Positions 3,697-63,700 of a DNA stretch of 64,000 bases are shown here, one piece after another. Each line of letters opens with the position of its first letter. The first letter of the stretch is position 1. Source of the DNA: Epithemia pelagica (lineage: Eukaryota; Protista; Bacillariophyta); the NCBI GenBank assembly GCA_946965045.2, contig OX337240.1:3100001-3164000 (forward strand), given 5' to 3'. The notes under the pieces were generated by a model. It did not search any database and was not told the DNA's origin. It was given only the letters and a program-made list of their open reading frames with translations. A program made the position numbers and the translations under genes.

Positions 3697-3938
3697 GTGT
3701 CTAGTCTACCGGTCTCTGTCCTCATATGAGGACATCATGTCCAAGATATTAAAGCCTGGCAACCTTTACCAAGATATTAAAGCCTGACAACTGGTACTAT
3801 GACCAAACTAAACCTGAGGAAAACGATGGTGCCATCCATTTTTCTCTATGCTGCAAAGAATACCATGAACTGAGATGTGCCAAATGTGTCCTCATATGAG
3901 GATATGTCCTCATATGAGGACAATGGTAGACTAGACAC
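3697..3938. mobile_element. MITE-like element, 242 bp
   Basis: 14-bp perfect inverted termini GTGTCTAGTCTACC (3697-3710) and GGTAGACTAGACAC (3925-3938). Three copies of the 18-bp palindrome TGTCCTCATATGAGGACA (3717, 3887 with one mismatch, 3905). A 23-bp direct repeat at 3741 and 3769. Confidence 0.7.
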
Positions 3939-3979
3939 TAGAGGAGGGTAACGTTTTGATGTGGACGAAATACTAGAGG

Positions 3980-4012
3980 TAGCTCTCTAGGTAGTAGCTA
4001 CCTAGAGAGCTA
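3980..4012. repeat. Perfect 15-bp hairpin
   Basis: TAGCTCTCTAGGTAG-tag-CTACCTAGAGAGCTA. Confidence 0.85.
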
Positions 4013-4653
4013 GCTACTAAATACCTATCTAGCTAGCTAGGAGTATAGTAATAATCATATTGGTAGGGATGACTTCATGGCTAATGACATTTACCATAAA
4101 CCCAGTTGACAATTATTATTGACAATAATTACCAGCACTGACACTGGGAATGAGGAACGAGGAATCGAAGATCGAAGATCGAAGGTCGAAGACCATACAC
4201 CATACTCCATACTACGAGCTCGTACTTCCTACTTCATACTTCATACAAGAGCTACTACTTAGTGTTCGACTTCTTTCATCTTTTCCTCTTCTATATTTCT
4301 ATGGCGTCGAAGTGTCTCGTCGGTTTGTTGGTTGGACAATGGGTGTTTACTGAAAGTAGTTAACAGACTTAACGAACGAACACAAACTCAAATATTTTGT
4401 ACCCATAACCTGCTCATTGGATGCTTATGTTAAGATACAGCCAAGAAATGCTCGGCACCTCGGACTGCCGAGCAAACGAAACACCCTAAACACAACATCC
4501 TCAACGCACGTAAGACACCTTGCCACCTCTATAGATATATATGTATTCGTATAAGATATACATCTTGCAACCCCCCAAACAAAGAAATTCCTTGGTTGTG
4601 GTTTGCACCTCCGCCTCCACCCTCCTCCTTCTCTCTCTCATGGTTGAATCACC

Positions 4654-5934: not shown

Positions 5935-7152
5935 CTAGAAATTACTAGTGGCACGAGCAGCATTTTGACGGAGTTGTGGCATGTATGTCGTCTGGATTTG
6001 ATTAAATCCAACAGTTGATGCTCTAAAGTTGTAAAGAAGAGCAATCAACCGTAGAATGACTCGGCGCTCTCCAACCTCTTCACAGGAGAGACGGTCTTTG
6101 AGGCGAGGGAAAGATGCCTGTAGACCTCTCATCCCCCACTCCGACAATTGCCGAACAGAAGTTGCGGCACGAAACACTACGCGTCTCATCCGAACATTAC
6201 CATCGTTGTCAAAATTTGACTGATGCGACTTAAGCAAGGAGGGACGGTTTTCCCTTCCAAAGGCAGAATCAACTACCACACGGGCTCCACCATTATCTCT
6301 CTCCCGCTCATGTAGTTCATCTAACTTGTTGTAGATGTTTGAAATAGAGGCAAGTGTAGAGTCATGCCATGAACCTGGAGCGTTTATAAAACAAGCACGG
6401 ATTTTGCCATCCGGTGAGTAGACAAAGAGATTGGACACATAGTGGTCGTGAGTCCATCCATTGTAAAACATGTTTTGTGTCAACGGATTTGCGGCAACAC
6501 AGAGCTTCAAACCATCCATGGCTGCCCAAATGTTGGCAAGACAGGGGTACTTGGCTTGGATTGACTGTTTGAATACAGCAATTTCTTCAGGTGTTGGAAG
6601 CTCTACCTTGGCGTCTGGATGCTTGGCAAGGACCTTGACCAGGATCCTCCTTCCGAATCTAAGCCACACTGATAACGGGTTGGCTGTGAAGCCGAATATC
6701 CATTGTAGTACTTTCCTGGATCCTCGAGTACGGGTCCATGCCAGCACAAGTCCTAGACACATGACCGCTGTTATTTTCCTGCGCCTACCATGATTCCTCC
6801 TTGTAAGTCGTTGCATGTGTCCCCGATTGTTATGTGACTGTGGGTAAGGAGTGTAGGCTTTGAACATTGGTCTGAACAGGGTTAGAAGCCGATTGAACGC
6901 TGCATGATCAAAACCACAAAGGGTGATTAACGCGTCATCCTGCATTGACCTATAGAGGTGCATAAATGCAGAGTTAAGGGGGTCATGTAACGCATTTCTG
7001 CGGATTACGGACCTACGCAGTTGGTTGTATTCGTCTACTTCGTTGTTGTTCTGTTGCTGGAGAAGCAACATCATCAGAATGGAAGCTTCCTCCATTGTCT
7101 TAGTTCTTGTACGGTGGAGGGAGACGAATGAGCATTGGGGGAGATTAGGCAT
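5935..7152 (-). CDS. Harbinger DDE transposase
   Basis: WAAMDGLKL, VVVDSAF and RQLSEWGMRGLQASFPRL triad, plus FINAPGSWHDS. The real start may be MEEASIL near 7095. Confidence 0.93.
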   Translation of the reverse strand: MPNLPQCSFVSLHRTRTKTMEEASILMMLLLQQQNNNEVDEYNQLRRSVIRRNALHDPLNSAFMHLYRSMQDDALITLCGFDHAAFNRLLTLFRPMFKAYTPYPQSHNNRGHMQRLTRRNHGRRRKITAVMCLGLVLAWTRTRGSRKVLQWIFGFTANPLSVWLRFGRRILVKVLAKHPDAKVELPTPEEIAVFKQSIQAKYPCLANIWAAMDGLKLCVAANPLTQNMFYNGWTHDHYVSNLFVYSPDGKIRACFINAPGSWHDSTLASISNIYNKLDELHERERDNGGARVVVDSAFGRENRPSLLKSHQSNFDNDGNVRMRRVVFRAATSVRQLSEWGMRGLQASFPRLKDRLSCEEVGERRVILRLIALLYNFRASTVGFNQIQTTYMPQLRQNAARATSNF

Positions 7153-24400: not shown

Positions 24401-26467
24401 CTGATCCGGCGCATTCTATTAGGCAACACATCATGCCAATGCACGACAGTCCGTCCGCACTTCATCTTGGACATCGGATCGCCACTGAAAAAAGGAACTA
24501 TCATCTTGGTTCTTGACGTCATATGAGAGCCATCGTGATTGTGTTAAGCACTCCCCCTTACTCAATCACGAAGCAACCATGCTCCTAGCTACGAAACCAA
24601 TCATTGCTCTCGACGCATTCAATCTTGTACTGATTCCTCCCAGTAGATGGATGGCACAGGTCATGTCCTAGTTGCATTCGGAGGCTTTTGTGGGATGATT
24701 TTTGGAAGCGTATTCACCAGACCATTGTGTATAACAGGCAGTATCGCTTGCTAATGGTCATCACAGGACCATGCAATACCCATTGGGACTATGGTGGCCG
24801 GTTGTCCTATTCCCCTTTGACTATCTGAGCCATGGATTGAGACGGTATGTCTTCTCGCCAGGAAGAGTTGCTCGCTTAATTAGTATCCATCGCTATTGTT
24901 GACATGTCTCAGCCTTTTCGGGTGTTTCCGAGTTGTTTTCCGAACATCCCGTGTCTCTCAACATATCCGACAACACAATTCTATCGGCCTGTTGTTTTGC
25001 GCCCACAACGTATCAGCCTCACTCATGTATTCTAGAGACATGTGTGTGCCCGGAATTATTTTTGCCCCGCATTCTCTGTCTCTGCATCAATCAACACGAG
25101 ACAATGAGTTGAAGGTCCAAAATGCTTGCCGTGCCTCCGTGGATGATGGTTTTCGTTGTGGTATAACGGTCCAATGCGGCTTCCTTCATCCACATAACTG
25201 CTCCGAACCGTGAATTTCGTCCATCGTTGTTTCATGAAGTGCCAGTAGCAATTGATACAAAATAGTTGGTAGAAAGTGTCTCGGGAATTGTGGTTGTGGA
25301 CAAAAGGAAAAAACGCCCCTTGCAAGATGTACTTGGCCCCTTTTTCCTTTCAAAATGTTCGTGCCAAACAACTTGTGTACTCCGCTGATGGACGTAACGC
25401 AACATGGGCTCATCAAGTTCACGTCTCGTTGGACGATCCGGAAACAGTTCCCCAGTGTTTGTCAGGCTCTTGGGACGAAAACGCCGTACTCCCCATTTGG
25501 ACGTCTCTGCGGACGACAAGGCAACACGTGCCCTTTTTGTAGGCACAAGTAACAACTAGGTAGCACAGGACGACCGACCACCACACCCTCCTCACCCTGG
25601 CGTACTGCCAAAGCGTTGGTAACCTGTACAAAATAGGATACTGGGCCTGCCGATCCGTGTTCGTTGAACATGAAAGCCGTACTCCCCAGTTTTGACGTCT
25701 CGAGGAATGTAAAAAGACACCATTTCCTCAGGTTGAGTGTCTCTCTTTGGACGATTCGGCAGCTATCCCCATTATTTTACGTCTCTTTGGGGGCGATCCA
25801 GAGCCCATCCAATAGAGCGTAGTAGCTCGGCAGCAACATAGTGTCTGGACCTCTGGACTGGAAATCGTTAGAGTTTGGGTTGCTGCCTACACTACAGAAC
25901 TGAACCGACCAAACCACAACCTCATTCCCAGTGCATTGCGCCACCAGGCCGTGAGAGTTGCAGTGTGCTTGGGACAACATTCCCACTTGCGAAAACACAC
26001 CAACGAACCAGAATAAAAGTGTCAACGCCGTAAGGCAGCCCAACGCTTTTGGAGGGAATAGTATCAAGGGCCTTGACTTCTTTTCCGGCTGTGGAGGAGA
26101 GGGCTTTCGTAGTTCGTAGACGCCATGGTTCCGGTGCTTGTCTTGTTGTGGAGTTCTCTCGAGAAACTGTCCGATTCACCGGGTGTATAACTTCTGTCAT
26201 CCACCCTACATTTTCCTTTTTTCTTTTTATTTTTTGCTAGAAAATAGAATTCAATTTTTTCCTACAAAAACAACCTATAACCGCCATACCAACAGCCATA
26301 GTGTCCAAACGGTGTACTTGCCAGCAATCCAAAAGAGCCTATTGCATGGAATAACAAAGAATTCTCTGCCTCCACTGAATGACCAGATCTTCCAGCAGAA
26401 GTTTTCCCCACCACAGCAGACAACTCTCTCATTTCACCCACCCACACTAACACCAACAAAGAACCTG

Positions 26468-26830
26468 CTCCATTGTCAGTGCCACTCAAACTGTCCCAAC
26501 TTCATCAATATCTGTCCAAATCAGGTCCAAAGTGGCTCATTCTCTTCCTCTTGAGCCGTAAAAGAGAGTGGTGTGGAGCAATCAAGTGCTCAAAGTTTGG
26601 TTCAGAAGCAAAAGAGGAAACTATTTGACCCTCCCTGTTTTGACTCCTCCATTGTCAGTGCCACTCAAACTGTCCCAACTTCATCAATATCTGTCCAAAT
26701 CAGGTCCAAAGTGGCTCATTCTCTTCCTCTTGAGCTGTAGAAGAGAGTGGTGTGGAGCGATCAAGTGCTCAAAGTTCGGTTCAGAAGCAAAAGAGGAAAC
26801 TATTCAACCCTCCCTGATTTGAGACCATTG
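26468..26830. repeat. 179-bp tandem duplication
   Basis: CTCCATTGTCAGTGCCACTCAAACTG... starts at 26468 and again at 26647, with a few substitutions. Confidence 0.92.
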
Positions 26831-26936
26831 TCAAGGAAAGATTGCAAGCTTGGTTTGTCCATTTGTCAGCGCCAAAGCAGGTTCTATTCTAGCTTTGGTG
26901 TAGAGGACAAGGGCACTCCTTGTTGTGATCTAGTCC

Positions 26937-30005: not shown

Positions 30006-30727
30006 CATCTAAGGAGGGAAATGGGCCCTGGCGCTTGATTTCCACCCCCAAAAGCGAATTTCTAGAAAAAATTCGCCGAATTAAAATTTTTTATGCGCAG
30101 TTTATTTTTATATGCGCAGTTTTTAACTATAATCCTGCTTTCCCAACTAAATCTGCAAATCTAGGTCTAACAATGCACATTTCTCTAGCTAGTTCTAGAG
30201 ATCGAGCTGACTATCACGCGCATGCAACAATTTTAATGCGCACAAGCCCACGATCAAACCACGAATAACGCGCGCCACACTCCGATAATGCGCACTACAA
30301 CTATCTGGCGCGCTCGACCCCCCCGAGACGCGCATGACGCAACCCTCATGCGCAAGCGTCTGTCCCCTCACCTTTGAATCACGAATTTCCACTCCCACCA
30401 CATCACACAGCAGCTGCCAGAAAGACTGACGCACATGGATGTCCCAAAGAATGTCTCAGATGGATCCTCCTTCCCAATCACCCTAACCGCGGGGATTACC
30501 AACTCGACACTCTGATCCATCGAACAAAACCGAACAACTTAGCATACTAGTCATTCAACAATCAACGACCACCAGAATCGATGCTCATTCATCTCCCTCC
30601 ACCTCCACCCAACACACCACAACAAACAACAACTGCAGCAGCAGCAACAACAGCAATCGATCACCCAACGCTATCGAGATTCCCCTGTTCAATCCCATTA
30701 TCTATCCAGCTTCTTTCATCAACCTAA

Positions 30728-31853
30728 CAGCTCTGCCATTCCAATCACGCTACAATTAAAGCGGCTTGGGGCATCTGTCTGATTGTTTCTTGGTTCCTTT
30801 TCAGCCACCTTTTTGTTGCTTGCTTTCTCTCTGCCGAGATTCCCTTTTCAATCCTTTCACCTATCCAACTTCTTTCACCAACCTAACAGCTCTGCCATTC
30901 CAATCACGCTACAATTAAAGCGGCTTGGGGCATCTGTCTGATTGTTGCTTGATTCCTTTTCAGCCACCTTTTTGTTGCTTGCTTCCTCTTCAGCCACCTT
31001 CACTCCAAAACCGCTGCACCAGAAGAAGAGGAAGAGGAACTCAAGCACGGCCAGAGCATTCGAGACATTCGAGACATTGACACTTGCACTATCTTGCAGC
31101 TCTGCCATTCCAATCACGCTACAACTAAAGCGGCTTGGGGCATCTGTCTGATTGTTGCTTGCTTCCTTTCAACCACGACCTTCACTCCAAAACCGCTACA
31201 ACAGGAAAACAAGAAGAAGAGGAACCCAAGAAGAAGAACGACCACCAGAGCATTCGAAATATTGTCGACATTTGTCCTATCTTTGACACTTGCACTATCT
31301 TGCAGCTCTGCCATTCCAATCACCACGCTACAATTAAAGCGGCTTGGGGCATCTGTCTGATTGTTGCTTGTTTCACTCAGCTCTGTCCTTCATTCCAATC
31401 ACGCTATTACAATTAAAGCGGTTTCGGGCTATCTGTTAGATTGTTTATCAAGAACCCTCCTGTCCTCGTGATACTCCGACTTGAATAGAACAGACCCAAA
31501 GCAAGCAGTGTGACACGGTGGTAGCCAGTTGCTTCTGTTCTATTCTTGTCGCGAGATTGCTTGGACAACCAACCAACCCCTGGTTTTGGAGTAGCAAATT
31601 CTGGCACCGATTGTTGGATCACAACGAACAAGACGCTACACATAAAGCGCGTCGTAGTGTATTCCTTCGATTTGGTTGTTGTTTTGTTACCACCAGAGTT
31701 CAGGACCAAACCAAAGACGCTACACAATTCAGCGCACACTTTTTACTGTTTAGACAAGTACACAAGGTTGTCTCAAAGACGCTACAATTAAAGCGCTTCC
31801 TCGACTACCCTTGTTGTTGTTGTTGTTGAAACAAAGACGCTACACAAAAAGCG
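30728..31853. repeat. Array of ~60-bp repeats whose core is the dyad CGCT-N8-AGCG (nine copies)
   Basis: Cores start at 30748, 30907, 31117, 31326, 31402 (N11), 31634, 31718 (N9), 31780 and 31838. The first five sit in CAGCTCTGCCATTCCAATCACGCTACAATTAAAGCGGCTTGGGGCATCTGTCTGATTGTT-type units. Confidence 0.88.
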
Positions 31854-35089: not shown

Positions 35090-36244
35090 TTAATACAATG
35101 GTTTCGATGAAGACATCAAGGCTGTGTAACAATGACGGAAGAACGGCATGTAATTGTAGTATCGACCGAAAGACATGGAGACAAGCCATTTAGACCAGGA
35201 GTCTTGGTCGAGAACATGACAAAATGGAGATGTATACTGAGAAGACTCCATCGGATCTCGCAGTTCGTTGTACATCAACTCTGTTGCGTTTTTGATAATA
35301 TCCTGTGCATGTTTGGGAATCGTGCCTGGTCCTTTGCAATTGGGCTTCAATTGTGCGTACACCAACGCCCGTCCAGCAATATGACAGAATCGCCAGACGA
35401 AGTACTTGTTGCAAGAGTTCCAACAACCATGCGAGAAGACGCATTCTGAATAAGAATTGCATGGCCTTAAGCAAGACTTACACACCAATGGAACCTTGTT
35501 TATGTCTGATTCTTCGCGTGTGATATTCATCGAATCATGGATATACAGGGCTTCGGTGCAACAACGTTCATTCCCACCTGAATCACATCCGTTCATGGGC
35601 ACTCCACAACCATAACAACAATCGGCACATGAGAGAGATTTACCGAAGCGATGCCAACATTTTCCTGTAAGTCTACGATCTGTTGAAAGGTTGTCGGTTA
35701 CAAAACACCAAGGACAAACTGGCTCTGGGGGAACATCATTGGATCCATAGATTTTATTGACAAGCTCAGTGAACCGAATAACTTCAAGATGCAGCTTATC
35801 TCGGTTTGCTCTTGGTTTACACATCGGAGGAGAGTCACGTAATAGCAAGATTGGAATAGTAGATGGATCGGCAACCTTGAGCTTCTTCTTATATGGGTTT
35901 GGGATCAACTGATACGATGGGCGCTTGATTGGTGGTAGTTTCTTCTCCTCTTCTTCCTTGGTATCAAGCTTAGAAGAAGGAAGTGGATGACATTTGATTA
36001 TTGATTTGGACGCAGGCGGTGGCTTCTTGTCATGTTCACCGTCGCAAGTTTTCGGGGTTGGAGAGTGCGTTTTGACAATTGGGGTCCCTATTTCCTCTAG
36101 CTCATATGGGTTGATCATCATTTCTTCATTAGATGGAGGTATCTTTGTGACTGGAAAGTTTGGTTTGACCACCAAGGGTGGAACTGTTTTCTTCCTCGAT
36201 TTGTATGGGTTGATCATTGTTTGAAGAGGAGTAGAATAGCCCAA
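35090..36244 (-). CDS. Cys-rich cargo protein (384 aa), paralogous in its C-terminus to the RING protein
   Basis: CPWC, CWH, CADCCYGC and CKSC; NKYFVWRFC and WSKWLVSM...YNYMPFFRHCY. The N-terminus has repeated (I/P)NPY motifs. Confidence 0.7.
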   Translation of the reverse strand: MGYSTPLQTMINPYKSRKKTVPPLVVKPNFPVTKIPPSNEEMMINPYELEEIGTPIVKTHSPTPKTCDGEHDKKPPPASKSIIKCHPLPSSKLDTKEEEEKKLPPIKRPSYQLIPNPYKKKLKVADPSTIPILLLRDSPPMCKPRANRDKLHLEVIRFTELVNKIYGSNDVPPEPVCPWCFVTDNLSTDRRLTGKCWHRFGKSLSCADCCYGCGVPMNGCDSGGNERCCTEALYIHDSMNITREESDINKVPLVCKSCLRPCNSYSECVFSHGCWNSCNKYFVWRFCHIAGRALVYAQLKPNCKGPGTIPKHAQDIIKNATELMYNELRDPMESSQYTSPFCHVLDQDSWSKWLVSMSFGRYYNYMPFFRHCYTALMSSSKPLY

Positions 36245-37681
36245 CTGACTGAAGACTGAGGATGACTTTTGGAAAACGATGGAAAGTATCTACTATTTCA
36301 TCCAATTTATGTGTGATACTCTGAGTTGAATTGGTCGGCTCGCGTACGGTTGTGGGGGGGGGGGGGGGGGAGATTAGGAGGGGAGTGCTGGTATGTGACA
36401 ACCCCCCATAGAGGCAAATTATGATCATGAGGTCGAATTGCTGACGGAGGATTGTTTCAATCTTTCTTTCATTTCATTACAGCGTTTCTCGAGATTGTCA
36501 CGGGCACTTTCATTGAATTCGGAAGCCCATTCTTTGATGTTGCGCACGGCCCAGACATTGTCACTAAAGTTTCTCAAATTACGACTGTCTTCTTGGAGCA
36601 AATCTTTTTCAAGTGAAGAATGGAAATATGTTGGGATAGAATCACGGTCTTGAATCATTTCTGGGTTCTCATCCACTACACCAACAACCTCAACAATATT
36701 CCGGAGTGGAACCATGACAATTTCAGCTATTCGATGTAGGTCAAAACGCTTCCGCCATATTTGAAAGAGAACGGATGATTTCTCGATATCAGCTGCACTC
36801 CGTACGTATGTCGTTCGGAGAAGGACATGGGTCATCTCGGGTGAAGTTGAAGGTTGACATACCGGTGCAAGTTTTCGGGGTTGGAGAGTGCGTTTTGACA
36901 ATTGGGGTCCCTATTTCCTCTAGCTCATATGGGTTGATCATCATTTCTTCATTAGATGGAGGTATCTTTGTGACTGGAAAGTTTGGTTTGACCACCAAGG
37001 GTGGAACTGTTTTCTTCCTCGATTTGTATGGGTTGATCATTGTTTGAAGAGGAGTAGAATAGCCCAACTGACTGAAGACTGAGGATGACTTTTGGAAAAC
37101 GATGGAAAGTATCTACTATTTCATCCAATTTATGTGTGACACTCTGAGTTGAATTGGTCGGCTCGCGTACGGTTGGGGGGGGGGGGGAGATTAGGAGGGG
37201 AGTGCTGGTATGTGACAAACCCCCCATAGAGGCAAATTATGATCATGAGGTCAAATTGCTGACGGAGGATTGTTTCAATCTTTCTTTCATTTCATTACAG
37301 CGTTTCTCGAGATTGTCACGGGCACTTTCATTGAATTCGGAAGCCCATTCTTTGATGTTGCGCACGGCCCAGACATTGTCACTAAAGTTTCTCAAATTAC
37401 GACTGTCTTCTTGGAGCAAATCTTTTTCAAGTGAAGAATGGAAATATGTTGGGATAGAATCACGGTCTTGAATCATTTCTGGGTTCTCATCCACTACACC
37501 AACAACCTCAACAATATTCCGGAGTGGAACCATGACAATTTCAGCTATTCGATGTAGGTCAAAACGCTTCCGCCATTTTTGAAAGAGAACGGATGATTTC
37601 TCGATATCAGCTGCACTCCGTACGTATGTCGTTCGGAGAAGGACATGGGTCATCTCGGGTGAAGTTGAAGGTTGACATACC
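36044..37681. repeat. ~820-bp tandem duplication
   Basis: 36044-36863 and 36867-37681 are nearly identical (G-run length and a few SNPs). This explains the duplicate ORFs 36425-36901 and 36789-37067. Confidence 0.95.
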
Positions 37682-40600
37682 AGTGATGGTTGTATTTGTA
37701 TGTGGTCTGTTCGAGTAATGGGTATTTGAATGAAGCATATCGTTTGACATAGGATGGTATCAAATTCTCCGAGAGGTTGGTTGTATAACTCGTCAAGAGG
37801 TTTCCTTTTTTTCTTTGGAACTTTAGCCATCACCCAATCTCTCCATGGCCCCTCGCTTTGATAATTCGGATGAGCCCGTATATTTCCTATCCTGGGGTCT
37901 TCGAACTTAAGTTCTGTGCTCCCGAACAATTCCAGTGTGGTTGAAGTCTCATTTGTTGGATCATCACTCATCCCGTCTATATGATGAAAAAAGCGTTTGT
38001 AATGTAATCGAAAGAAGTGATTACAAAACTGTGGCAATGTCATGTCATGATTTGTTTTGGAATGGAATTCGATATTCACTGATACCACATCCTCCTCGTG
38101 TGGTGCTGCTGTCAATCGCCTGTGTACACTACTCGTCTGGTTTCGGTTTGATCCGTCTTGTTCTTTTCTGGTCGTGCCTGGAACTTGAATCGACATACCC
38201 AATGGAGACGGAAGATCCTTTTCTATTTCATTTGATGACTGGTCTTGATTATCACCAGAAGTATGTACGTTCGTGTGAGGTACTGGAATCAAACATTTTT
38301 CTCTGGTCATGGATACTACTATGACCGTTCCACGACTATTTGAGGTTGATGTGGTAGGGAGTTGGTTTTGGGATCCCTTTTTTCTCCTTATTTCATAAGG
38401 CGACTTCCCTTCCTGGAGAAAGGTGACATGATCTTCTTCAAGACCTGTTGCTTCCTGCAGCATTTCCAAGCTTTGCATCCACCAGATATTTTCTGCAAGT
38501 TGCGACTCAAAAATTCCTTTTCCACGTTTCTGTACCGTTTTTGCATTCAATTTCACAATTTCCTTGTGATTACTTTCCTCTGACTCCACATCAAGCAGTC
38601 GTGCTGGTCCAAAATTCTGAATCTGTTGTATAATGTGTATGAGATTGTGGAATTTTGGTATCATCCACCCGTTGGACATCAATTTGCCTTTTTTATCGAG
38701 CCTGGGTGCATATCTCCTGATGCCATCCATCAAAATCCGCACTGATTCGAGAGACTTGGAAGCTGTTGTTTGTCCTTCTTGTGAGTCTGGGTCTGTTTCC
38801 CAGAATGTATCCATACGAATCCAGCTGTTGAAACACAAAAGAGTCTCGAATAGATGCAGGAAGTCTATGTATGGTTCCCGCTCATCAACATCCCAGATAG
38901 ACCTGTAAGCAACTGGGTCATCATCAAAAACAGTTTCAGCTGTGATATCAATGTCAACACTATCATCATCATCAAGACGTGTACGTTCGTACTCTTCATC
39001 TGGTGGAGTATCATCCTCATTGTCAGCAATAGGTTCACTTGTCTCTTGCACTTGATCCATGTCCGCTTGACATGTCTTGTTGGTGGTTTTGGATGTTTGC
39101 TTTGCTTGTCGTTTTTTCCATTCCGCAACCACCTTGTTCCATTTCTTTGCCATATTCTTCGCAAATATAAGGCGACCTCTGGCAGTGGCACATAGAGCTG
39201 CTGAAGCAAACATGATCCCAACCCACTCATTGGCAGTTACTTTTGACAGGTTACTGATCCCGGTCGAGAATGATGTTCCAGGATATCCAAGTTTCGATGA
39301 ATACGAGAATACAGTCTGTCTACTTGCCCGAAAGATTGAATTGTAGACATAATCAAACATGGCCCGTTCAGTTTTTGTCATCAACGTGAAAAAGTCAATC
39401 ATGATGTATCTCATTATCCCAGATTTCAATGTATGAAGAACATCACAACTACTGGCCGAGAAAATCCCATGTTCAGAATTGGTTCCTTCACCCAGGTAAA
39501 CCTTGGAAAAACAAAGATCGACTGCATATTGTCCCATGTCATGCAATTGGGTTTTTGCAGCTGACACAAGGGTATTGACCCCTCCATCTCTGCTATTTTC
39601 TTGACTTACTTGTGATGTGCTCAAACAGGTAGGAACAGTCAAAGTCGAAAATGTATCATTGTCTCTCTCTTGGTAATCAACATCCTGTTCAGTCAGTTTT
39701 TCTCGATTTTCATTAAGACCCAATGCATTCAAGCACATTTTGTATGTACTTGCAGCGTTGATATAAGAACATTCATGCCATGGGTATCTGCTATCCCTTG
39801 GTTTAATGTTGCAACACCATGATAGTCTTCCAACACTTGGATGATGCGAGGCATACCGACCTGCAAGGTTATCCTGAGACTTCCCATCTCCTTTGACAAC
39901 AATCATTGGCAATATCAAACGAACAACTTTGATAATCCCATGGAGGCGTAGTTTCATCCATAAACCTTCCTGTTTTTGGATACTGACAAGACCTTCGAGG
40001 ATCTTAGTCAATTGAGCATGATAATTTCGGCAAGGAGTCCCTTTATCGAGGATATGTTTTGCCGCCGATGATTTTCTTTCCATGTCTGTAATAGTCCCAA
40101 GGATGATCTGTCGCCTTGCTTTCCTCATTTGTGTTTCCGTTAGAAAAGATGGCACCATTACAACAGGCTCCGATGTATATCTTCCATCCCCTGTTGCATG
40201 TGTTTTGTCCATATAACAGACAAGACCAACCACGAAGGCATCTGGATCATCTCTATATTTTTCCACTGTTTTCCGAAATACTTCTCCGTCTTGTATATTT
40301 TGGATGTGCTTGTTTGGAACATATGGACGATACGGATCGTCATCATCGAGGATCGTATTTTCTTTCTTGGTTGCATCGGGATCTTGTAATACACGCTGTA
40401 GTTGACTGATCAAATCAAATACTGGTGTTGTTATTGATTTCTCACTCTCTGGTACAACCACACCCTGTTTTTGGGTGAATTCCATTGGTACCGGGAAAAA
40501 TTTTGCCTTGGGATAATTGAAACCTTTGGTAGAAAACTTTTCGATGAACGTTTTCCTCTTTGAATGGTTGTCCAGGAAGAACCCAGGACCGCATCTTGAG

Positions 40601-41103
40601 TATGTGTCACTCGACCATGCCAGGATCGAATTGTACAAATATTTGGGGCAACCAGCTTTCCGAAGTAACATCATAAGTGAGACCAAGGCTGCATCGTGTT
40701 TATGAAGTTTCAATTGCTTCCCATCTCTATCAAGGAACGCAGGAAAATCAACCGGGCACTCCTTGCTGTTGCGCAGAATAATATTATCTGTATCACCAGG
40801 TACATAGTATGCTTTTGGTGGGTCAGCATGCGGAATAGTGGTTTCATCGTCCATGATATCAATATTCATTGGATCAGCATTCATATTACTGGCACAATCA
40901 TTGTTGTCATCGCCAACATTTGGCCATTTCCTTTGTGTGTTCATTTTCAATTCACAAACTGTTTGGTGACGGCTGATTCCTCTTGCATCGAAACGTGATT
41001 GACAGAAACGACACACTTGAAAGGATATGAAGGACTCCTCTTGTTGGCTTGTATTTGAGCATCTCTTTCGCGACTTCTTTTTTACTTTACGACGCTGGCC
41101 CAT
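37243..41103 (-). CDS. Plavaka-like (CMC) transposase, 1286 aa, intact
   Basis: N-terminal zinc finger CRFC...RHQTVC; VCYMDKTH; VKGDGKSQD; CDVLHTLKSG; PKFHNLIHIIQQIQNFGPARLLDVESEESNHK; IRAHPNYQSEGPWRDWV. Confidence 0.85.
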   Translation of the reverse strand: MGQRRKVKKKSRKRCSNTSQQEESFISFQVCRFCQSRFDARGISRHQTVCELKMNTQRKWPNVGDDNNDCASNMNADPMNIDIMDDETTIPHADPPKAYYVPGDTDNIILRNSKECPVDFPAFLDRDGKQLKLHKHDAALVSLMMLLRKAGCPKYLYNSILAWSSDTYSRCGPGFFLDNHSKRKTFIEKFSTKGFNYPKAKFFPVPMEFTQKQGVVVPESEKSITTPVFDLISQLQRVLQDPDATKKENTILDDDDPYRPYVPNKHIQNIQDGEVFRKTVEKYRDDPDAFVVGLVCYMDKTHATGDGRYTSEPVVMVPSFLTETQMRKARRQIILGTITDMERKSSAAKHILDKGTPCRNYHAQLTKILEGLVSIQKQEGLWMKLRLHGIIKVVRLILPMIVVKGDGKSQDNLAGRYASHHPSVGRLSWCCNIKPRDSRYPWHECSYINAASTYKMCLNALGLNENREKLTEQDVDYQERDNDTFSTLTVPTCLSTSQVSQENSRDGGVNTLVSAAKTQLHDMGQYAVDLCFSKVYLGEGTNSEHGIFSASSCDVLHTLKSGIMRYIMIDFFTLMTKTERAMFDYVYNSIFRASRQTVFSYSSKLGYPGTSFSTGISNLSKVTANEWVGIMFASAALCATARGRLIFAKNMAKKWNKVVAEWKKRQAKQTSKTTNKTCQADMDQVQETSEPIADNEDDTPPDEEYERTRLDDDDSVDIDITAETVFDDDPVAYRSIWDVDEREPYIDFLHLFETLLCFNSWIRMDTFWETDPDSQEGQTTASKSLESVRILMDGIRRYAPRLDKKGKLMSNGWMIPKFHNLIHIIQQIQNFGPARLLDVESEESNHKEIVKLNAKTVQKRGKGIFESQLAENIWWMQSLEMLQEATGLEEDHVTFLQEGKSPYEIRRKKGSQNQLPTTSTSNSRGTVIVVSMTREKCLIPVPHTNVHTSGDNQDQSSNEIEKDLPSPLGMSIQVPGTTRKEQDGSNRNQTSSVHRRLTAAPHEEDVVSVNIEFHSKTNHDMTLPQFCNHFFRLHYKRFFHHIDGMSDDPTNETSTTLELFGSTELKFEDPRIGNIRAHPNYQSEGPWRDWVMAKVPKKKRKPLDELYNQPLGEFDTILCQTICFIQIPITRTDHIQIQPSLVCQPSTSPEMTHVLLRTTYVRSAADIEKSSVLFQKWRKRFDLHRIAEIVMVPLRNIVEVVGVVDENPEMIQDRDSIPTYFHSSLEKDLLQEDSRNLRNFSDNVWAVRNIKEWASEFNESARDNLEKRCNEMKERLKQSSVSNLTS

Positions 41104-44105: not shown

Positions 44106-44168
44106 AGGGGTGCTTTCTTATCGATAATTAAACCGCCATAAACTGGCGTACCGTTCCTTCCTTAGATG

Positions 44169-45619
44169 GAGTCTCCATCAGTGATGAGTAAACAAACCCT
44201 GGAGAGATGCTGCTCACCTAATAATGCAGGGAGGCATTTAAGAAAGACCCATCTGTAAAATGCGATAGTTTCATTCGGCATGAAGATCCTAGCCACAACA
44301 AAAGCTTTGCCATTTTGGTCTCTACCACAGATAAGCAGTAGTGGCCTTGCTTCATTGTTGGTTTTATGCGTCGAATCAATAAACAACACTTCGGGGTAGC
44401 GAAGGAATTGTTGATAACTCGCGTCGTCGACCCATGCAGCACCAAGTAAAACCTGGCCGTCATTCCCAAGACAATGATTCAAACTAGTAATAAGGTCTCT
44501 GTCTTGATATGGAGTTGCGTCCATGGGTGCGTTGACTTCTTCTTCATTTCCTTTTCTTGTGACATACTCGAGCTGGATGTGAGGAAGAGTCATGGCCTCT
44601 TCAACTTGAGACAGTGAAATTCGACCCCCTTTGGGAACACGACCCTTTGAATGTTTGTGGAATGTACCACTATTCTTCTTGCATGTAAGGAAACAATAGT
44701 GTAAATTGACAGCTGGATCAGCAGCTTTGCACCTCAACCATTTTACCATTTTGGCTGCTGTTGTGGAGTTTTCTCCATCACCCTCTGAATCATCCTGGAC
44801 CATTTGTATGCGGCGAACAGAACCTTTCGACACCAACTCGTTCTGGTGTTCAAGGACAAGACTTCTCATTGATGTTGATCCAACAGAAGCATTGCCACCA
44901 CTCTGAATCAGTTTCAGTGCTGCTGGACAGAGGTGACGCGTTTGGTGTGACAGCTCATTTGGGAGTGGTTTTGGATGATTGACGTGGATATTGTCACCAC
45001 AAGCTTGTTTGAGATATATATACCCATTCTCGCCCTCCTTTATCCCCAACCTAAGGCAAACTGAGCATAGAGACTCTTTTGAAGTGGGCAGACCTGTTGT
45101 TGTACTTCGAGATAACGTTCTCCCACCAACCCGGTTATTTGTTTTATCTCTGTGGTAAGTGTGTGAACGGATCCCAAGCTTGATTCCTCTGTTGTCAAAA
45201 TTCTTTGTATTTGTTTGCTGTGTTTGTGCTGGATTGTTTACAAGGGACTGTTTCTTGGCACTGGCATAGAGTCGACATCGGTGGCATCGCAATTCCATGC
45301 CTCGAGCACCACGGGACACTAAATTGGTTCCTTCTCGAAGAGCAGCCTTTTTCAGATCTTTAATCAGTAGCTGCAAACCTTCTTCTGTATTTGAATAATG
45401 TGTTCTGTCAAACACAACTTTGGGAATCGAAGCTGGTGTGCATCGCCTAAACTCCTGTTTGTTTGTGAATTGGAATAGCTCTATAGAGCCAGAGATTCCT
45501 TCCACACGAGAAAAGGTGAGAGTGGCTTTCCAGGATGCATTACTGGGATCGGAGGACGTCTCCAAGGTATTGGTATGGGTTGGACTGGAATCTGTTTGTG
45601 TCATGGTCGTACTATTCAA
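44169..45619 (-). pseudogene. MULE transposase, N-terminal half
   Basis: YPEVLFIDSTHKTNNEARPLLLICGRD...NETIAFYRWVF...LLITDGDS, cut at the insertion. Confidence 0.9.
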
Positions 45620-46965: not shown

Positions 46966-48221
46966 ATGGTTGTCACTCGATCTGGACGCGGGGGATCCAG
47001 TCGGGGGCTGACTTCTGTTTCCGGTTTCGTCTCTTCTTCTTCTCGGAAAACCCGTCAGTCAAAAGCAAATGTTATTACCCGTCGTTCAACGACGAACACT
47101 TCGAAGCCATCCCTTGACGGAAAACTCTCCGCATCAAAGTTTCCAAAACCAAAACATTCGAAAAAACCCAACGGAAAACCCAGAAAGTCAACGAAAACGG
47201 CTGAAACGACGAAAGATCGGCCAAAGACAACCATTCTCGACACAAAGCAGCACAACGTCCCAGAAAATAGTAAAGATGGTGAACCTAATCTCCTACGTCG
47301 CTACCAGAAGATGTCATCGTTGGAGAGTTACGTAAGCGACCATCTAGACGAAATCGATCCCCATATGTGGGAGACGTCTGGTTAGAGTCTGAGCAACGCG
47401 AGGCTATAGTCCATTTGCCCAATCTTGATATGGGAGGAAAATGCGTACCGGGTGCTAAACTATTGCTCAAGCCAGCTCGAGACAGAAAGGGAAATTTAGT
47501 TGGGAAAGACGCCGTGAGTCCAAAGTATGGAACGCCAAAGTGTGAATTTATAGCCCAACTCCTACGGTATGACGAATCCGATCTCGGATACGAGCCAGCG
47601 TGGGTCGGTGCTCATCCGTCACTCGGAGAGAAAATCGCTGAGCAACTGGTTGGTCGAAATCTTCTAGGGCCAAATTTTCCAAGGGTTAAGAGTTTCAAGC
47701 GAGAGGTTCGCAATGTCGGCGGAACTGATATGAGAGCGGATTTCCTGATCGAACACGAAGATTCTACTCTGCCTCCTCGTATATTGGAAGTCAAAACCGT
47801 TGTGGATACGGATTATTCTCCACAGTCCGTCCCCGAACGAACAAAATGTGTCTTTATGAGCGATGAAGTGCCATATCGGAGGACCGCAATTTTTCCCTGG
47901 GGAAATTCAAACCAAAAAGGGCCCGATGGAGAAGCCGTCGTTTCGGCACGTGCTATCAAACACGTCCGTGAGCTTACTCGAATGGTTTTGGACGACGATA
48001 TAAACTTTGACTGCACGGTTTTATTTGTAGTGATTCGTCATGATGCAAAGGCCTTTCGTCCTAATGTGGACGCGTGCCCATCTTTTGCCAAGTATGTTAG
48101 AGAGGCTAAGGACGCAGGTGTTCAGATTCTTGCCAAGCAGGTTGCATGGGGTGAAGAAGTAGAAAACGTTGGAAAATGTTACGAGGGGAAGCTATTGGAC
48201 ATTTCTTGGCCTCGAAGGTGA
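46966..48221 (+). CDS. sfsA: SfsA-family nuclease with a basic low-complexity N-terminal extension
   Basis: KRPSRRNRSPYVGDV, HLPNLDMGG, MRADFLI, ILEVKTV, ARAIKHVREL and FRPNVDACPSFAKYVREAKDAGV. The frame break near 47296 is either an indel or a 38-nt GT-AG intron (47270-47307). Confidence 0.8.
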
Positions 48222-49026: not shown

Positions 49027-52000
49027 TCAATGCTCCTGGTGTTGCTCATGCGGTTCCTCCGACGTCATTGTTATCGGTACAGCGGACGAGGGCGACATTA
49101 GATGGGGTGACGACAAGGACGAAGGCCCGCCACGCACCAATAAGGCATTCGGTCGGTCTGCCAGTCCCGGCGTTCCAAGCGCAGGGACCGACGTACGACG
49201 AAGGGTCGAGGAGGAACCAGTAGCATTTCGTCCACTTCCGAGGGACCAATGACGGAGAGGACCACGTCCTCCTCCCGGCGGGGTTCGTACTCCCATTGCC
49301 ATCATTGCAGCGCCACCTGTTTTGGGAAGAGGTGTACTGTGAAAACTTGTGGGAGTTTGAGGTGTCGACCAAGTCTGACGACTGCCAGGATTACCACTGC
49401 TCGACAGGTGGCTGCCACTGGTTGTTGTTTGGTAGCTATTGTGGTGATGTTGTTGCTGCTGTTGGTACTGCAAAAAGCTTTTGGGTGTACCAGTGGAGTC
49501 ATGGAAGCCGCTGGTCATGGAATTTTTACGCGATGCACATGGCGTGGTTGGGGCATCATGGGGTGATGATGGGGCTTCCAGTCCTTGTTGTTGTTGTTGT
49601 CGACGTAGCTTGAAACTATAGTGATGCATTTGTTCAATCCATGATAGCGTCAAGCTAGCTCGTCGTTCCAATACTGTTTCGCCGCCACCTTCAGCACTAG
49701 TGGCTCCTGTGGTTACCACTCCTCTACGTGAAGTTCGCCTGGGACTTTGCAGGACGACGTGATTTGTCTCTGGCTGGGTCGATACTAGACCGTCCTCCTC
49801 TTGTGAACGCATTGTGGATGATGAATCATTCGGATCCTTGCTCTTGTTCCGGTCTACACTTGTTGTTCCGGCTTCCTCATCGTCATCGTCCTCTCGTTGC
49901 AGTACCAGGGTGCTAGTGGCGCTAGAGGAAAAACCACCGCCGGTTGTACCCCAAAAACCACCGCCGGTTGTACCCCAATACTCTTCATCGTCTCCAAACG
50001 ACTCTGTGACACTGGAAACATCCAAGACGTCTTGGGCATTGGTATCAAAATTTCCAATGTTGCGACCTTCGTGTTCCGACCGTACTTGGTAGACTCCGGG
50101 TGCCGCTCGTGTCACGGCTGGATTGTGGTGTGGTGGAGAATCGGCTGCCCCCCAGGACCACAATCGCAACCGATTGTTGGATCGAGAACGAGTCAGAGAG
50201 GAAGCAATGGCATCAAAGGGTGCCATCAAGTCCGCATTGGGCAGCATTCCTTCTGAAGTTGTTGGATGTCGCGCTGTCTGTTGTTCCGACAGTATGGCCC
50301 TAGTAGGTTCCTTACCTTCGTGGTTCTCGTGTTCCTCCTCCTGTTGGTGCTGAGCATTGACCGACTCCATGGTACCCGATACTGAGGACTTGAGGTTGTA
50401 CTGTTGGTACCAGGAATAGGCGACCACCACGGCATTCCAAAATCCATGCAATGGAGTCAGGAGAGCCACGACGACCCAGAGCGCAAACCGATTGTAGTCA
50501 TTGTCGTTTTGGTTGTCGTCGTCGTCGTCGTCATGCTCCTCGGTTCTCATGGAAACCAGCTGCGCCACAGCGATCCAGGTCCACGAACAGGTCAGAGAGA
50601 GCAAGAAGCCAATGCAAGAAGCCACCATGACACGATTCGAAGAGAAAAAGGGAATGTGTGGTGGTTCTTCTTGCCGGCATTGGTGTTGCCGTGAGTATTG
50701 TTCTGTACTGGTGTTACACCGAACGAGGCCACTGGATGCGGATAACGGCTGTTCTGCTCGGTGACATGGTGGAGGTGTCGTCGGCGAGGTTGCCAGCTCG
50801 GGATTCTGGTGCTGGTTGTGGATTGGCGGGGGTGGTGGTGGTGATGATGATTGGGCGAGTAGAACTAGAGGCGGCGTGGACGGTACAAAGGTTCCTCGTG
50901 CCGCAACCGAGGATCCTCGACGAGGAGCACGAGCTGCCACAAAGGAGAAGGACGGTCCTCCCGTTCTGGGAGCAGTATTGGGATTGGCGTACCCATAATA
51001 CTCAGTATTGTTCTGGTGGTGGGGAGGAAATGGCGCATCATCCCCAGAAACCACAGGCGGCTGGTGTGCCGGCACGGCGGGCAGAACCGTGGTCACCAAT
51101 TCATGCACGGCAATGGAGGAACCTCGCCGAAAGGCTCGAATTCGCTCTTGTCGTGCTTGTTGTTGGCCTTGGTCATTGAACCATTCTTCATTGGTGGCCT
51201 GTTGTTGACCCTCTTGGGCGGGAGGATAATGAGGTGGGGGACCGCTGGCTGCCATCGGGTCGGCGCCCATGACGACACCCACCCCACTGGGAGCATGGCA
51301 GAGATTGGAACTGCTACCAGCCGCAGTGTGGAAATGGTGGGAGTGTTCAAGGCCACTGCTGCTGCTGTTGTCTGCTGATTGGGTATGATTCGAGCCGCGA
51401 GGAAAAACACCTGCTGTTGCCAGTGTGGTGGTTGGCATGACGGGCAAGGAATGTTGTCGCAGCACCAACAATTGTTGTTGTTGTTGCTGCTGCTGTTGAC
51501 GATCTCGTAGTCGTTGTTGGCGGGGAGACAAGGGAGCTTGAATCGAATGCTGTAGTTCGTGATTATTGGGTGGTGCGTTGCTTCTTCGAAAGGAGGAACT
51601 TAGCGATTGCGAAAGAATTCGCATGATATCCGTATTATTGTTGTTATGGGCCGAACCCGTGGCAAGATGGTCCCGATTCGTCTTGGAATGGTCGTCGTCA
51701 TCGGAAGGAGGATTGGAATTGGGAGAGGGACACAAGGATGGTACAGGAACATGACGATCGTCCAAGTCATGAGGAGGATCCTCTCTTTCGTTCTCCTTCA
51801 GTTTGGACGCTTGTTCTGCTTCTTGTTGTTGTTGTTTGTGAACCTTTGCAAGGTCTTGTGGTGGTTGGCTATTTGTCGTCCTGGTTGGACTGCCCTGCAC
51901 CAACATCCACACCACGACGCCCAGTGTCCAAACGATGGCCAATCCCAGGGGAAGAATGAAAAGAAGGAGTGCTGGTAGGTACGACACTGATGATGACGAG

Positions 52001-52547
52001 GATGAGGATGCTGGAATGGAGCACACCCAAAACAGTCCACCATCCTCAACGTGGCCCCCTTGATAAAAGGGAAGACCGGCCGCCGCAATCGTAAGGGCCA
52101 ACAAGGCCGGTACAGCCCACCACCCCATCAGTGAAATAAGAAGAAGGCGAGTGCCAGAATGATTGGTTGGTGGAAGGAAGGACGAGCACCAGAGGACCAT
52201 CATCATGGACCGTCGTCGTCGATGATGTTGTGGTTGGTGTGGTTGCTGTTGTAATGTGCCTCGTGGAGAGGAGGAGGATGACGCCGACGGAGGTTGTAGG
52301 CCTACTGCATCCGGAGTAGTAGTAGCGTTGCTGGGTTGTTCTCGAGAACCGTCTTCCATGCCGGATAATTGTGGTTGTGTTTGTGGTTGTGTACATGGTA
52401 CTGCTGCATTATTCTCACCGTCTGCAGGCTTGGTCGAATCGTTCTCCTGTATCTTCTTGTTCATCCAACGAGCACACCACGAGATCAAGGCCACGGTATA
52501 AAAAATGGCTGGAAATGGAGAGAGAAGCCAGTCCATTTCGAAACACC

Positions 52548-60918: not shown

Positions 60919-62386
60919 TTCGGCAGAGTGTTCTGGTTGTTGTTGGTATTACTATTGTGGTTGTTCCATTAGTACTTGAAAGAATGGACGACACATACAC
61001 AAGTGTTGTGGGTCTCGCTCAGATCTCTGGATGGAGATTTTGTGCGGTTCGACGACGAGAGTGACGTTCTATCACAAACGCAGACCCGCATTCGAGGAAC
61101 TTTGGTTGTAAAATGAAGTGGGAATGTCGCAAGGACATTCGATCTCAGCGTGTGGCACTGATGTCTGTGAATAGTTCCATCAACTATAAAACGAATCATG
61201 GTCCAAGGAGTAGTGATTCAGTCTGCTGGAGAGTTCTATTTCCGCGATATTTTACGGAGAGTCATTTGAGTGTGCAGATTTGATCCTATTTTGGCCTTAA
61301 TTTTTGTTGTATTTTTTCACATAGAATGGTTCTGAATTCTGAAACTAAAAATGTGCCCAGCCGAGGAGGGATTTTGACTAGTTTCATGTAGAAAAATCCA
61401 AACGAAAATCAGGTGATTTCATGAAACTAGAACACAAAATCGGACAGTCGCAACACTCAACAATCCTCATCTGTTCTGGAACAGAGAGACTCTGGATACC
61501 GCAGGACATTCCCTCTGACAGGACAAAGACACTCCCAAACGTCCAAGCCGAGAGACGAGAAACCACAACCTGCGACAATGGCGACGGCTGTTGTAGGGGA
61601 TGCCGGGCAGAAATTGGTCCGATCAGACCAATTTCCGGTCAGACATCTTGGAACCTGCCAAGCACGAAATAATGGTGGATACACAATTCCCTGTTCGAGC
61701 ATGGCACGGTGGTTCCACATTCCTGTGGCGCTCCTCTACAAGGAGACAAATACTGTGACGCTCCATTACAGGAACGAAAGCCAGTCACCCAACACTTTGA
61801 AACCAAAGCTCACGAGATATGAGTTGCCATGGAAGCAAACAAATTTCATTCGGCTCGCTTCGCTTCCTGGTTCCGTGGAGGACAGTGTCCGTGAACCTTC
61901 CTCCTCCAAGGCGGCCCGTACCATGGGAGGGCAGGATCCAAGTAAGGATGATACGGATGGATCTGTCCATTCATTCATTTGCTGCTCGTTTGGACGACGA
62001 CAACCAGAACGTATCCACACCTACTGCCGTCGGTTCCACGGATCATCCAGACTTGACCACTGCGGCAAATCGCCGAGAGCGCAATTGCTAGCTACCTAGC
62101 TTTTCAACAGGGAAAAGCTACATGCTCGCTTGGTCCGTGTGAGCGCAAGCGAAAAGGTCATTCCACAGATTTCTACTGCCAATGTGCAGCGGCTTTGCTC
62201 TCTGGCTAGACCTTTCATGGGGGACGGATGGAGGAGAATGACAAACGTTTGGATGGGCTAATACGCTGGGATCGAATCGACTCTACCGTAACAATGTGCA
62301 GTACGTGCGCGCAAGGCTCTGCTGGGACTAACGATCCTTGTATAATAGTATGGAGCAACCGCCGCAACGACACAAGTAGTAATTCT

Positions 62387-62570
62387 ACATCCGCTCCGCG
62401 GAGTGGGGAGGCACGAGGAGGGGCTATTGACTCCGAGAAGGGCAATAGCTCCGAGAAGTGGACCGCCTTCTAAATCCGCGTCAGCGGATTTGGCGGTCCA
62501 CGACGAGGAGCTATTGCCCGCCGAGGAGTCAATAGCCCCGACAAGTGCCCCCACGACCAGGAGGGGATGT
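62387..62570 (+). ncRNA. Candidate structured RNA: 184-nt rod hairpin with four repeated symmetric internal loops
   Basis: Hand-paired stems of 11, 10, 15, 13 and 10+8 bp. Loops GCGGA/GACCA, GAGGA/GACAA, GAGAA/GCCGA and GAGAA/GACGA. Transcription is not shown. Confidence 0.55.
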
Positions 62571-62780
62571 CGCTTGCTTCTATCACCTCCGAGTCCCCCC
62601 CTAATTAACTGTCACACTTTTTTCCCAGGACTGGTTTTTTTGCTCCGCACTATCTTTTTTAGCTCCGCACTTGCTCGCGTATGAGAGCGCGGCCGTCGCG
62701 GGCAATATAAGGCTATATAAGACGAAAATCCTACTTCCATTCCGAGGAGCTATAGTAGTATTAAGAACTCCCTATGTCTA

Positions 62781-62919
62781 GTCCCTTTTGAGGAGGGTCG
62801 CCCGGCGCGGAGGGTAGAATGACGAGGAGGGCAATGGTCGAGGAGGGCGCACGCCCGACAAGACAATTGCCCGTCGAGTCATTCTCCCGACAAGCCGGGC
62901 GCGCCCGACGCGAGAGGAC
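62781..62919 (+). ncRNA. Candidate structured RNA: second rod hairpin with the same loop motif
   Basis: Loops GAGGA/GACAA, GAGGA/GTCGA and GCGGA/GACAA, plus an imperfect GAGGA/GACGC. Stem sequences differ from hairpin 1. Confidence 0.5.
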
Positions 62920-62991
62920 GGCCAGACACAGGGAAGTAGTAAACTTACTCCCTATCAAGCTGTGTAGGTAGTGAGAAATTCCTGGAAGCCA

Positions 62992-63043
62992 TGTCACAAA
63001 GTGTCACACAAATGTCACACAATTGTCACACAAGTGTCACACA
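62992..63043. repeat. Five-copy 11-bp tandem repeat TGTCACACAAN
   Basis: Units start at 62992, 63002, 63013, 63024 and 63035. Confidence 0.92.
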
Positions 63044-63256
63044 TGAGAGGGAAACCGCGCGACTCGCACGAAACTACTTCCCGGTCGTACAAAAAATTCC
63101 TACTGTAGTATAAAAATGTGAGACGAACTACCTACACAGTCTGGTATGGAGTTAGTGTCTCACTTTCCGACCCTCCCAACAAGTGCCAACCCGAACAAGT
63201 CGTAGAAAAGTGATCTGCTTCACTTTGCTCAACAGGATGATGAGAGGCTGCCTTGG

Positions 63257-63700
63257 TTGCAGTGGACCAAGGCTTGGCGGATGGGAATGATTGGACATGT
63301 TGCCACCAGACAACTATTACATCGAGAAGGCAGTCGTTACACTGGTTTCCCGTCATTTGGTGATTTGGGCATGATAGTCGGTGTCATGGCCCACTTGTTT
63401 GTATACACATCACAAGAGACCTTGCTGCAGTGTAGCCCATGTATGCTGGCCAATCCACCATTGGATGGCCACACCTACAAGGATCGATTCGAGGGTGGGA
63501 CCATGATGAGTGGCTGTTGTTCCCTCGGGCAGCACCGAGCTGCAAGATGAGGGCCTTCTGGACTGACCGGAGGAACCAGCAACCACTCTACACATGTGTG
63601 TGCTGGCTCCAAAACAGGACGACAAGCATGGCAGAAATTAGGAAACAACAGCAGCCATGAAACGCAAGAAGACGACGGAACATCTGCGTGTCGAGGTCAC
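63257..63700 (+). pseudogene. Possible decayed non-LTR retrotransposon C-terminal fragment
   Basis: IGHVATRQLLHR...FPSFG and QSTIGWPHLQG/RF across a frameshift resemble C-terminal blocks I recall from algal non-LTR proteins. No RT motif seen. Confidence 0.3.

Follow-up and report, generated by a model that had tools for sequence, protein, structure and literature searches.

The closest described systems to the locus reported here are the HLE2-reverse and proto-Helentron elements which, according to the available part of PMC11417382, carry a 5' stem-loop followed by an inverted repeat with its partner at the 3' end. The ends of proto-Helentrons are given in an excerpt of PMC4067079 as 5' TT and 3' CTAG, and Supplementary Table S10 of HELIANO, one portion of that source, lists HLE2 in both of the two diatoms examined. 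HLE such as DINE-1 and HINE (PMC5148889 among the sources, in excerpt) are non-coding and have variable central tandem repeats, conserved right ends, varied left ends and stacked termini. With respect to structure, CGAG facing CGAG is reported from NMR, in the accessible passages of PMC10085684, to form sheared, cross-stacked tandem G.A pairs in thermally stable DNA hairpins, and for the mini-hairpin GCGNNAGC the accessible section of PMC13037366 gives, in the example GCGAAAGC, 76.5 °C as DNA versus 39.0 °C as RNA.

The window analyzed here is a 64-kb stretch of the genome of the diatom Epithemia pelagica. In contigs of runs X1 and X4, position 62376 is followed directly by 63153. The 776 bases between are absent, the letters TAGT fit on either side of the joint, and these contigs represent an empty allele without 62377-63152. 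TAGT at the left boundary (62377-62380, plus strand) occurs once in the empty allele and twice in the filled one. An intron was also considered and rejected, given that the skipped stretch does not run from GT to AG under any allowed cut. The summed contig depth in X1 is 7,000-129,000 over 62369-63274 versus 30-830 in the flanks, and in X2 it is 2,400-69,000 versus 145 outside, values that are not to be read as copy numbers. Given the empty allele and a depth far above that of the flanks, the insertion 62377-63152 is a mobile, high-copy repeat. Parts of its right half are found with few differences in runs X5, X6, and X9 (marine sediment, biofilm, and marine metagenome), and across copies the right ends are conserved while the left parts vary. 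The non-coding locus is separated by about 1.5 kb from the start of a gene for diaminopimelate epimerase, whose best named relatives are from the diatoms Epithemia, Mayamaea, and Amphora.

The insertion resolves into two related non-coding units lying head to tail, unit A (62380-62758, plus strand, 379 bp) and, behind it, unit B (62759-63155, plus strand, 397 bp). This division is made because contigs stop at 62758, the contig depth drops there, other copies share a TAGTA register and the right ends diverge. Unit A is made of a 5' rod, a spacer and a 3' end in TAG; its left cut, which would fall within the four-letter ambiguity, is placed where the depth climbs (bin 62374-62395). At its right edge, two contigs with the depth of the flanks, one of 1109 nt (X2) and one of 1152 nt (X3), match as far as 62758 and continue in other sequence. 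The TAGTA of other right-half copies is in the register of window positions 62756-62760, 30 letters before 62784, in three of the four runs with that loose end. For the right end of unit B, among the matches listed, at least seven contigs match through 63156 and at least two stop at 63155 before diverging; with the two contigs of unit A that stop at 62758, the T that follows the 3' TAG is, among these matches, variable between copies. Unit B is commoner than unit A in public contigs.

Both units are preceded by TAG, start with TA, carry a rod 7-16 nt inside and end in TAG. These boundaries, together with the loop motif described below, the words TGTCACA (once in unit A, at 62610) and CTAC[T/A]TCC, and AGACGAA about 35 nt from each 3' end, are the reason for considering A and B as kin; four of the six matches to CTAC[T/A]TCC in the window fall in this locus. 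The overall similarity of the two is weak, with a global score close to that of the top one among 100 shuffles and 3' ends that 135 of 5000 shuffles equal. In the right flank, 63175-63197 is 78% identical over 23 nt to the 3' arm of the rod of unit A, and in the left flank 62345-62359 carries GTATGGAG, as does the 3' end of unit B. From these resemblances, units A and B may sit inside an older remnant of their own family.

The rod of unit A (rod 1, 62387-62570, plus strand) had been described in an earlier note as a long hairpin, and refolding recovered the helix runs, both bulges, the G.G mismatch and the apical loop that the note had given. The runs are 6+4 (with one G.G), 6+4 (with a 2-nt bulge), 15, 13, and 10+8 (with a 4-nt bulge) below a GTCA loop at 62480-62483, and none of the 71 predicted pairs is G-U. 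The RNA fold has an energy of -136.6 kcal/mol, versus -66.8 +/- 4.7 for shuffled sequences (z -14.85), and in the shuffle comparison for which the note had called none of 200 was as good. Folded as DNA, the z value is -12.7, and rod 1 is the top-folding 200-nt stretch of the window. The neighboring stems at 62423-62458 and 62506-62538 both carry GCTATTG/CAATAGC, so that each arm can fold on itself, giving a branched form. The minus strand folds strongly as well (z -13.9), which means that folding energy gives no strand choice. It is the purine content of the mismatches that sets this choice, since the same loop places on the minus strand hold pyrimidine mismatches; the proposal that the plus strand is the functional one is supported on this ground, although both strands fold.

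The note had also claimed four internal loops of one kind, and all four sequences do fit a C-G...A-G pattern. Their 5'/3' strands read CGCGGAG/CGACCAG, CGAGGAG/CGACAAG, CGAGAAG/CGCCGAG, and CGAGAAG/CGACGAG, at 62397/62554, 62414/62539, 62434/62519, and 62452/62501, respectively. Among the 16 non-canonical pairs, 12 are G.A (p about 4e-7 if the 12 mismatch types are equally likely), and when 17 mismatches were placed randomly in 80 pairs, four blocks of the order mismatch-mismatch-pair-mismatch-mismatch appeared in none of 200,000 trials. The pattern is thus non-random, as had been claimed. A decayed inverted duplication that the repeat carries passively, with mismatches of no function, would find some room in the 18-bp period (2.4 copies) of the 5' arm of rod 1, from which arm growth by duplication is possible. 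Nonetheless, the dominance of G.A and the block layout lie well outside chance, a second rod repeats the motif between different stems, and other copies have paired changes, which leaves this reading largely refuted and very improbable. An inverted short tandem unit, which the note had named as a test, came out negative: inversion would put the complement of the motif on the 3' arm, whereas this arm repeats the motif itself. Fixed helical phasing of the motifs was likewise rejected, with a spacing of 15-20 nt that is not constant.

Rod 2 (62775-62930, plus strand, z -9.7), with a base that can be extended to 62767/62937, was missed in the earlier note, as was the element around both rods. It carries the same kind of loop at 62789/62906 (degraded in this copy), 62806/62888, 62823/62872, and 62839/62856. 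Over the 16 loop strands of both rods the consensus is C-G-A-S-R-A-G, with C in 15, G in 16, A in 12, G or C in 16, a purine in 15, A in 15, and G in 16. Beside the closing and central pairs, 24 of the 32 non-canonical positions are G.A and three are A.A. Each 5x5 loop is, therefore, best described as one G-C pair with a tandem G.A step on either side, and the loops as stacked tandem G.A pairs rather than as open loops. Half of each canonical rod motif is CGAG against CGAG, the block of PMC10085684, and by this analogy the doubled motif would also form sheared tandem G.A pairs as in those DNA hairpins. Compared with the block as presented in that part of the source, the rod motifs differ in joining two tandems through a common central G-C pair, at 15-20 nt from each other on a Watson-Crick rod, and in the A.A, A.C, and C.C substitutions that occur among the predicted motifs.

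It remains to consider how the rods vary among copies, which are known as variant tables and 30-letter loose ends and offer few events rather than a covariation statistic. In rod 1, the pair 62461/62498 changes from G-C to T-A (62461 G>T with 62498 C>A) in one contig, at depths of 1206.1 in X2 and 949.6 in X3, and the pair 62464/62495 changes from C-G to T-A (C>T with G>A) in contigs whose depths sum likewise. The depth of 62464 C>T is three times that of its partner 62495 G>A, and 62449 C>G has no partner change listed. In rod 2, two neighboring pairs are swapped in one contig of X6. In a loose end of X2, G-C replaces A-T in the tip stem, and the loop is GTAA. Position 5 of the loop varies only between A and G (at 62456 and 62827), and the loose ends of other subfamilies show unrelated stems beside the same or nearly the same loop words. 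One unphased pair suggests that the central G-C of the motif can flip to C-G. Because both members of stem pairs change in other copies and the loop motif mostly persists, the rod looks like a selected one-strand structure. Judged from these variant tables, the expectation that other copies keep the loop consensus holds for the most part. Of the broader proposal of a selected RNA or single-stranded DNA structure, the selected single strand agrees with the paired swaps and the mostly kept loops, the multiple sites for one protein may exist, and the retroviral-like RNA has no support here. Indeed, no support was found for an RRE/CTE-like export or packaging RNA, given that the rod is the 5' end of a non-coding mobile unit of about 380 bp with an empty allele and no LTR.

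That the note could not match the rod to an RNA family agrees with Rfam 15, in which no family reached the gathering threshold in the window; four weak matches to miRNA precursors lie far below threshold, the best being MIR1858 with 44.8 bits versus 137. ARAGORN found no tRNA genes, and neither a tail, an LTR nor a tRNA-like head is present at the A/B locus. The rod is not a new host RNA gene. An element that moves via RNA, SINE-like or another retro-parasite, with the rod as an RNA signal for a partner protein or an export or packaging factor, would profit from the very stable RNA fold of rod 1 and from a right part of the locus that is deeper than the left, as expected from 5' truncation. 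Tandem G.A motifs are common in RNA, and a single site cannot separate a 4-bp duplication from a shared core. Against this stand the missing tail, LTR and tRNA-like head, the distance of MIR1858 from its threshold, the lack of G-U pairs in rod 1, the sharp TAG ends with inverted repeats and a depth step that two separate units account for. Movement via RNA is, for these reasons, quite unlikely.

The balance leans to a rod that folds as single-stranded DNA, short of proof, because rod 1 has no G-U pair, its tip GC-GTCA-GC (62478-62485, plus strand) matches the DNA mini-hairpin GCGNNAGC as that section of PMC13037366 describes it, and no tail, LTR or tRNA-like head is found. The sheared tandem G.A pairs that CGAG forms against CGAG in DNA hairpins lean the same way. 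In the opposite direction, rod 2 has five G-U among its 57 pairs, one tip variant among copies is not GNNA, and tandem G.A, being also an RNA motif, counts against a DNA-only reading.

Beyond their rods, the units carry inverted repeats. In unit A, an imperfect subterminal repeat at 62385-62411 (plus strand), within the 5' arm of rod 1, is partnered by a 3' terminal arm at 62730-62758 (plus strand) that is flush with the TAG end, with 22 matches in 30 columns and none of 5000 shuffles as good. In unit B, an internal repeat at 62943-62972 (plus strand), directly behind the rod base, forms 25 of 30 Watson-Crick pairs with the 3' terminal arm at 63127-63156 (plus strand), which ends in TAG plus the shared T; none of 2000 shuffles was as good. 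A classical MITE was ruled out, since the 5' arm of unit A is imperfect and starts 5 nt inside, and the partner in unit B is internal. The center of unit B is a tandem repeat (62991-63043, plus strand) of 4.9 copies of an 11-bp unit with TGTCACA, and in other copies (X1, X4) one 11-letter unit is absent at 63002. The junction of A and B (62756-62763) reads TAGTATTA, which we take to match the circovirus/nanovirus origin nonamer in eight of nine letters. This likeness is probably due to chance, because other left ends do not have it.

This organization leads us to a reading, held at a probability of roughly 55%, in which each unit is a non-autonomous rolling-circle element of HLE2-reverse or proto-Helentron-like layout whose plus strand folds as single-stranded DNA. 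The rod would be the 5'-terminal hairpin of a non-coding, high-copy diatom unit of about 380 bp, and the transposase, a rolling-circle HUH enzyme and probably a RepHel of the Helitron2 type, would be supplied from elsewhere. This enzyme would nick between TAG and T, the displaced plus strand would fold as single-stranded DNA and be closed to a circle, and the circle would insert between another TAG and its T. Insertion at the TAG and T that end a sister unit would give the A/B tandem. C-GA-S-GA-G is predicted to adopt a pair of sheared G.A tandems stacked on each other. The G.A ladder would in this way keep the plus strand as a near-continuous helix, weaken the minus strand and the duplex cruciform and leave no perfect stem longer than 15 bp. 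In addition, the transposase or a host protein may bind at each of the motifs.

Within the parts of these sources used here, several likenesses connect the units to the described elements. The asymmetric inverted repeats with a terminal stem-loop of HLE2 are present in A and B; as in HLE2-reverse (FoHeli3-5) and proto-Helentrons, unit B has a 5' stem-loop, then an inverted repeat, with the partner flush at the 3' end, and as in DINE-1 and FoHeli1/2, the subterminal repeat of unit A is nested in the 5' hairpin. The 5' T and 3' TAG resemble the proto-Helentron termini, the non-coding units share with HLE the variable central tandem repeats, the conserved right and varied left ends and the stacked termini, and HLE2 is reported from pennate diatoms, the present host being a diatom also. 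Differences are found in size, given that HLE2 in the portions available has repeats of 12-17 bp and short stem-loops versus repeats of about 30 bp and rods of 156-184 nt here, and in the repeated double tandem-G.A motif. They are also found in the target: according to the same portions, HLE2 inserts between T and T and proto-Helentrons between A and T, whereas the one empty site here has TAG followed by T (plus strand), and no cut in the four shared letters fits. TAG precedes the element in this empty site and in the left ends seen. TAGT flanks the insertion on both sides, and the constancy of TAG where other copies end speaks for a shared core, although a site-specific duplication would look alike.

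With regard to an autonomous partner of the units, none was found among the window ORFs by Pfam (21 and 38, in overlapping sets, with no Helitron, RepHel, RT or recombinase) or in pattern scans of contigs, which gave no homologous locus. In viral contigs, scans for relatives gave 122 loci whose best folds are coding-like, one coding-like locus, and none, and a further scan gave 91 loci without a rod upstream. In metagenome contigs (41 of 64 parts), 120 loci held neither a rod nor a long match, and genome contigs gave no loci. Given the target mismatch and that no partner was found, the units are not filed as members of HLE2. The literature search, which had most subscription papers and Repbase outside its scope, returned no description of such a diatom element.

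Other open reading frames and repeats were observed elsewhere in the window. An ORF at 44162-45619 (minus strand) has a MULE transposase domain, and one at 5935-7152 (minus strand) a DDE_Tnp_4 (Harbinger-like) domain, faced by a DUF6818 ORF at 4654-5886 (plus strand). A MITE-like element at 3697-3938 has a perfect 14-bp terminal inverted repeat and internal palindromes, with further palindromes nearby at 3977-4015. There is a tandem duplication of about 830 bp with 98.4% identity at 36038-37685, and local direct repeats of 80-310 bp lie at 26465-26833 and 30675-31446. An SfsA-type nuclease domain (PF03749, E 2e-17), of a family that is commoner in prokaryotes, is encoded at 47289-48221 (plus strand), and ORFs of 1286 and 1169 aa at 37243-41103 and 49027-52536 (both minus strand) have no Pfam match.

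The junction of the ends of unit B bears on another possible kind of enzyme. The stretch at 62925-62972 repeats, in inverse form, first the 3' end and then the 5' start, and in a closed circle of unit B the junction is predicted to lie in a near-continuous duplex. A non-autonomous tyrosine-recombinase element, DIRS-like or Crypton-like, would use 62928-62972 as an internal complementary region that splints the ends, and its circle would recombine through a TAG(T) core with the same core in the target. A single core in the empty site, with a core at either end of the insertion, is the DIRS pattern as given in parts of PMC7192593 and PMC3266345, and a CryptonS is known in a diatom. Nonetheless, the ICR of DIRS acts as a template and is, in the same parts, described as exactly complementary, whereas here 25 of 30 positions (83%) pair even though the insertion is still polymorphic. 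No ITR pair encloses the complementary stretch (337 of 5000 shuffles are as good as the 5' start against the 3' end of unit B), the ends are not NTT as in that part of PMC3266345, the equivalent in unit A is weak (156 of 5000 shuffles as good), and the units have no RT or YR. As for Cryptons, the terminal direct repeats of CryptonS are 5-6 bp, mostly TATGG, versus the 4-bp TAGT here, and Cryptons are mostly low-copy. A tyrosine recombinase is, therefore, an unlikely agent.

A sequence-specific nick between TAG and T at both ends could also be made by another or an undescribed HUH group, with the logic of Replitrons or IS91. In the accessible portion of PMC10288648, Replitron-1 inserts behind RG and starts with T, Replitrons have small non-autonomous derivatives, and IS91 has a tetranucleotide target; TAG followed by TA fits both. 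That portion, however, reports no Replitrons in diatoms, and the units differ from Replitrons as described there in their giant 5' rod and in not having the 6-bp direct terminal repeat, their inverted-repeat layout being HLE2-like instead. Such a group is a doubtful source of the enzyme, marginally more so than movement via RNA is of the element.

A rather speculative reading, which we would not favor but which is somewhat less improbable than a tyrosine recombinase, sees in the units an undescribed class of diatom mobile DNA. The single strand would form a nicked dumbbell that duplexes its own ends, and the sheared-G.A ladder would be a strand code for an enzyme outside the Helitron, Replitron, Crypton, and DIRS groups.

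Units A and B are a transposon-like repeat, real and selected, with a G.A structural motif that lacks an explanation. Through them, an abundant diatom repeat would gain a name and boundaries. To our knowledge, most of what is known of non-canonical DNA pairs, sheared tandem G.A among them, comes from model oligonucleotides, and here selection appears to keep such motifs eight times in 780 bp of a mobile element. The many variant copies are a ready evolutionary data set, and with the element one could test directly how one strand is marked in a rolling-circle element while a perfect palindrome is avoided.
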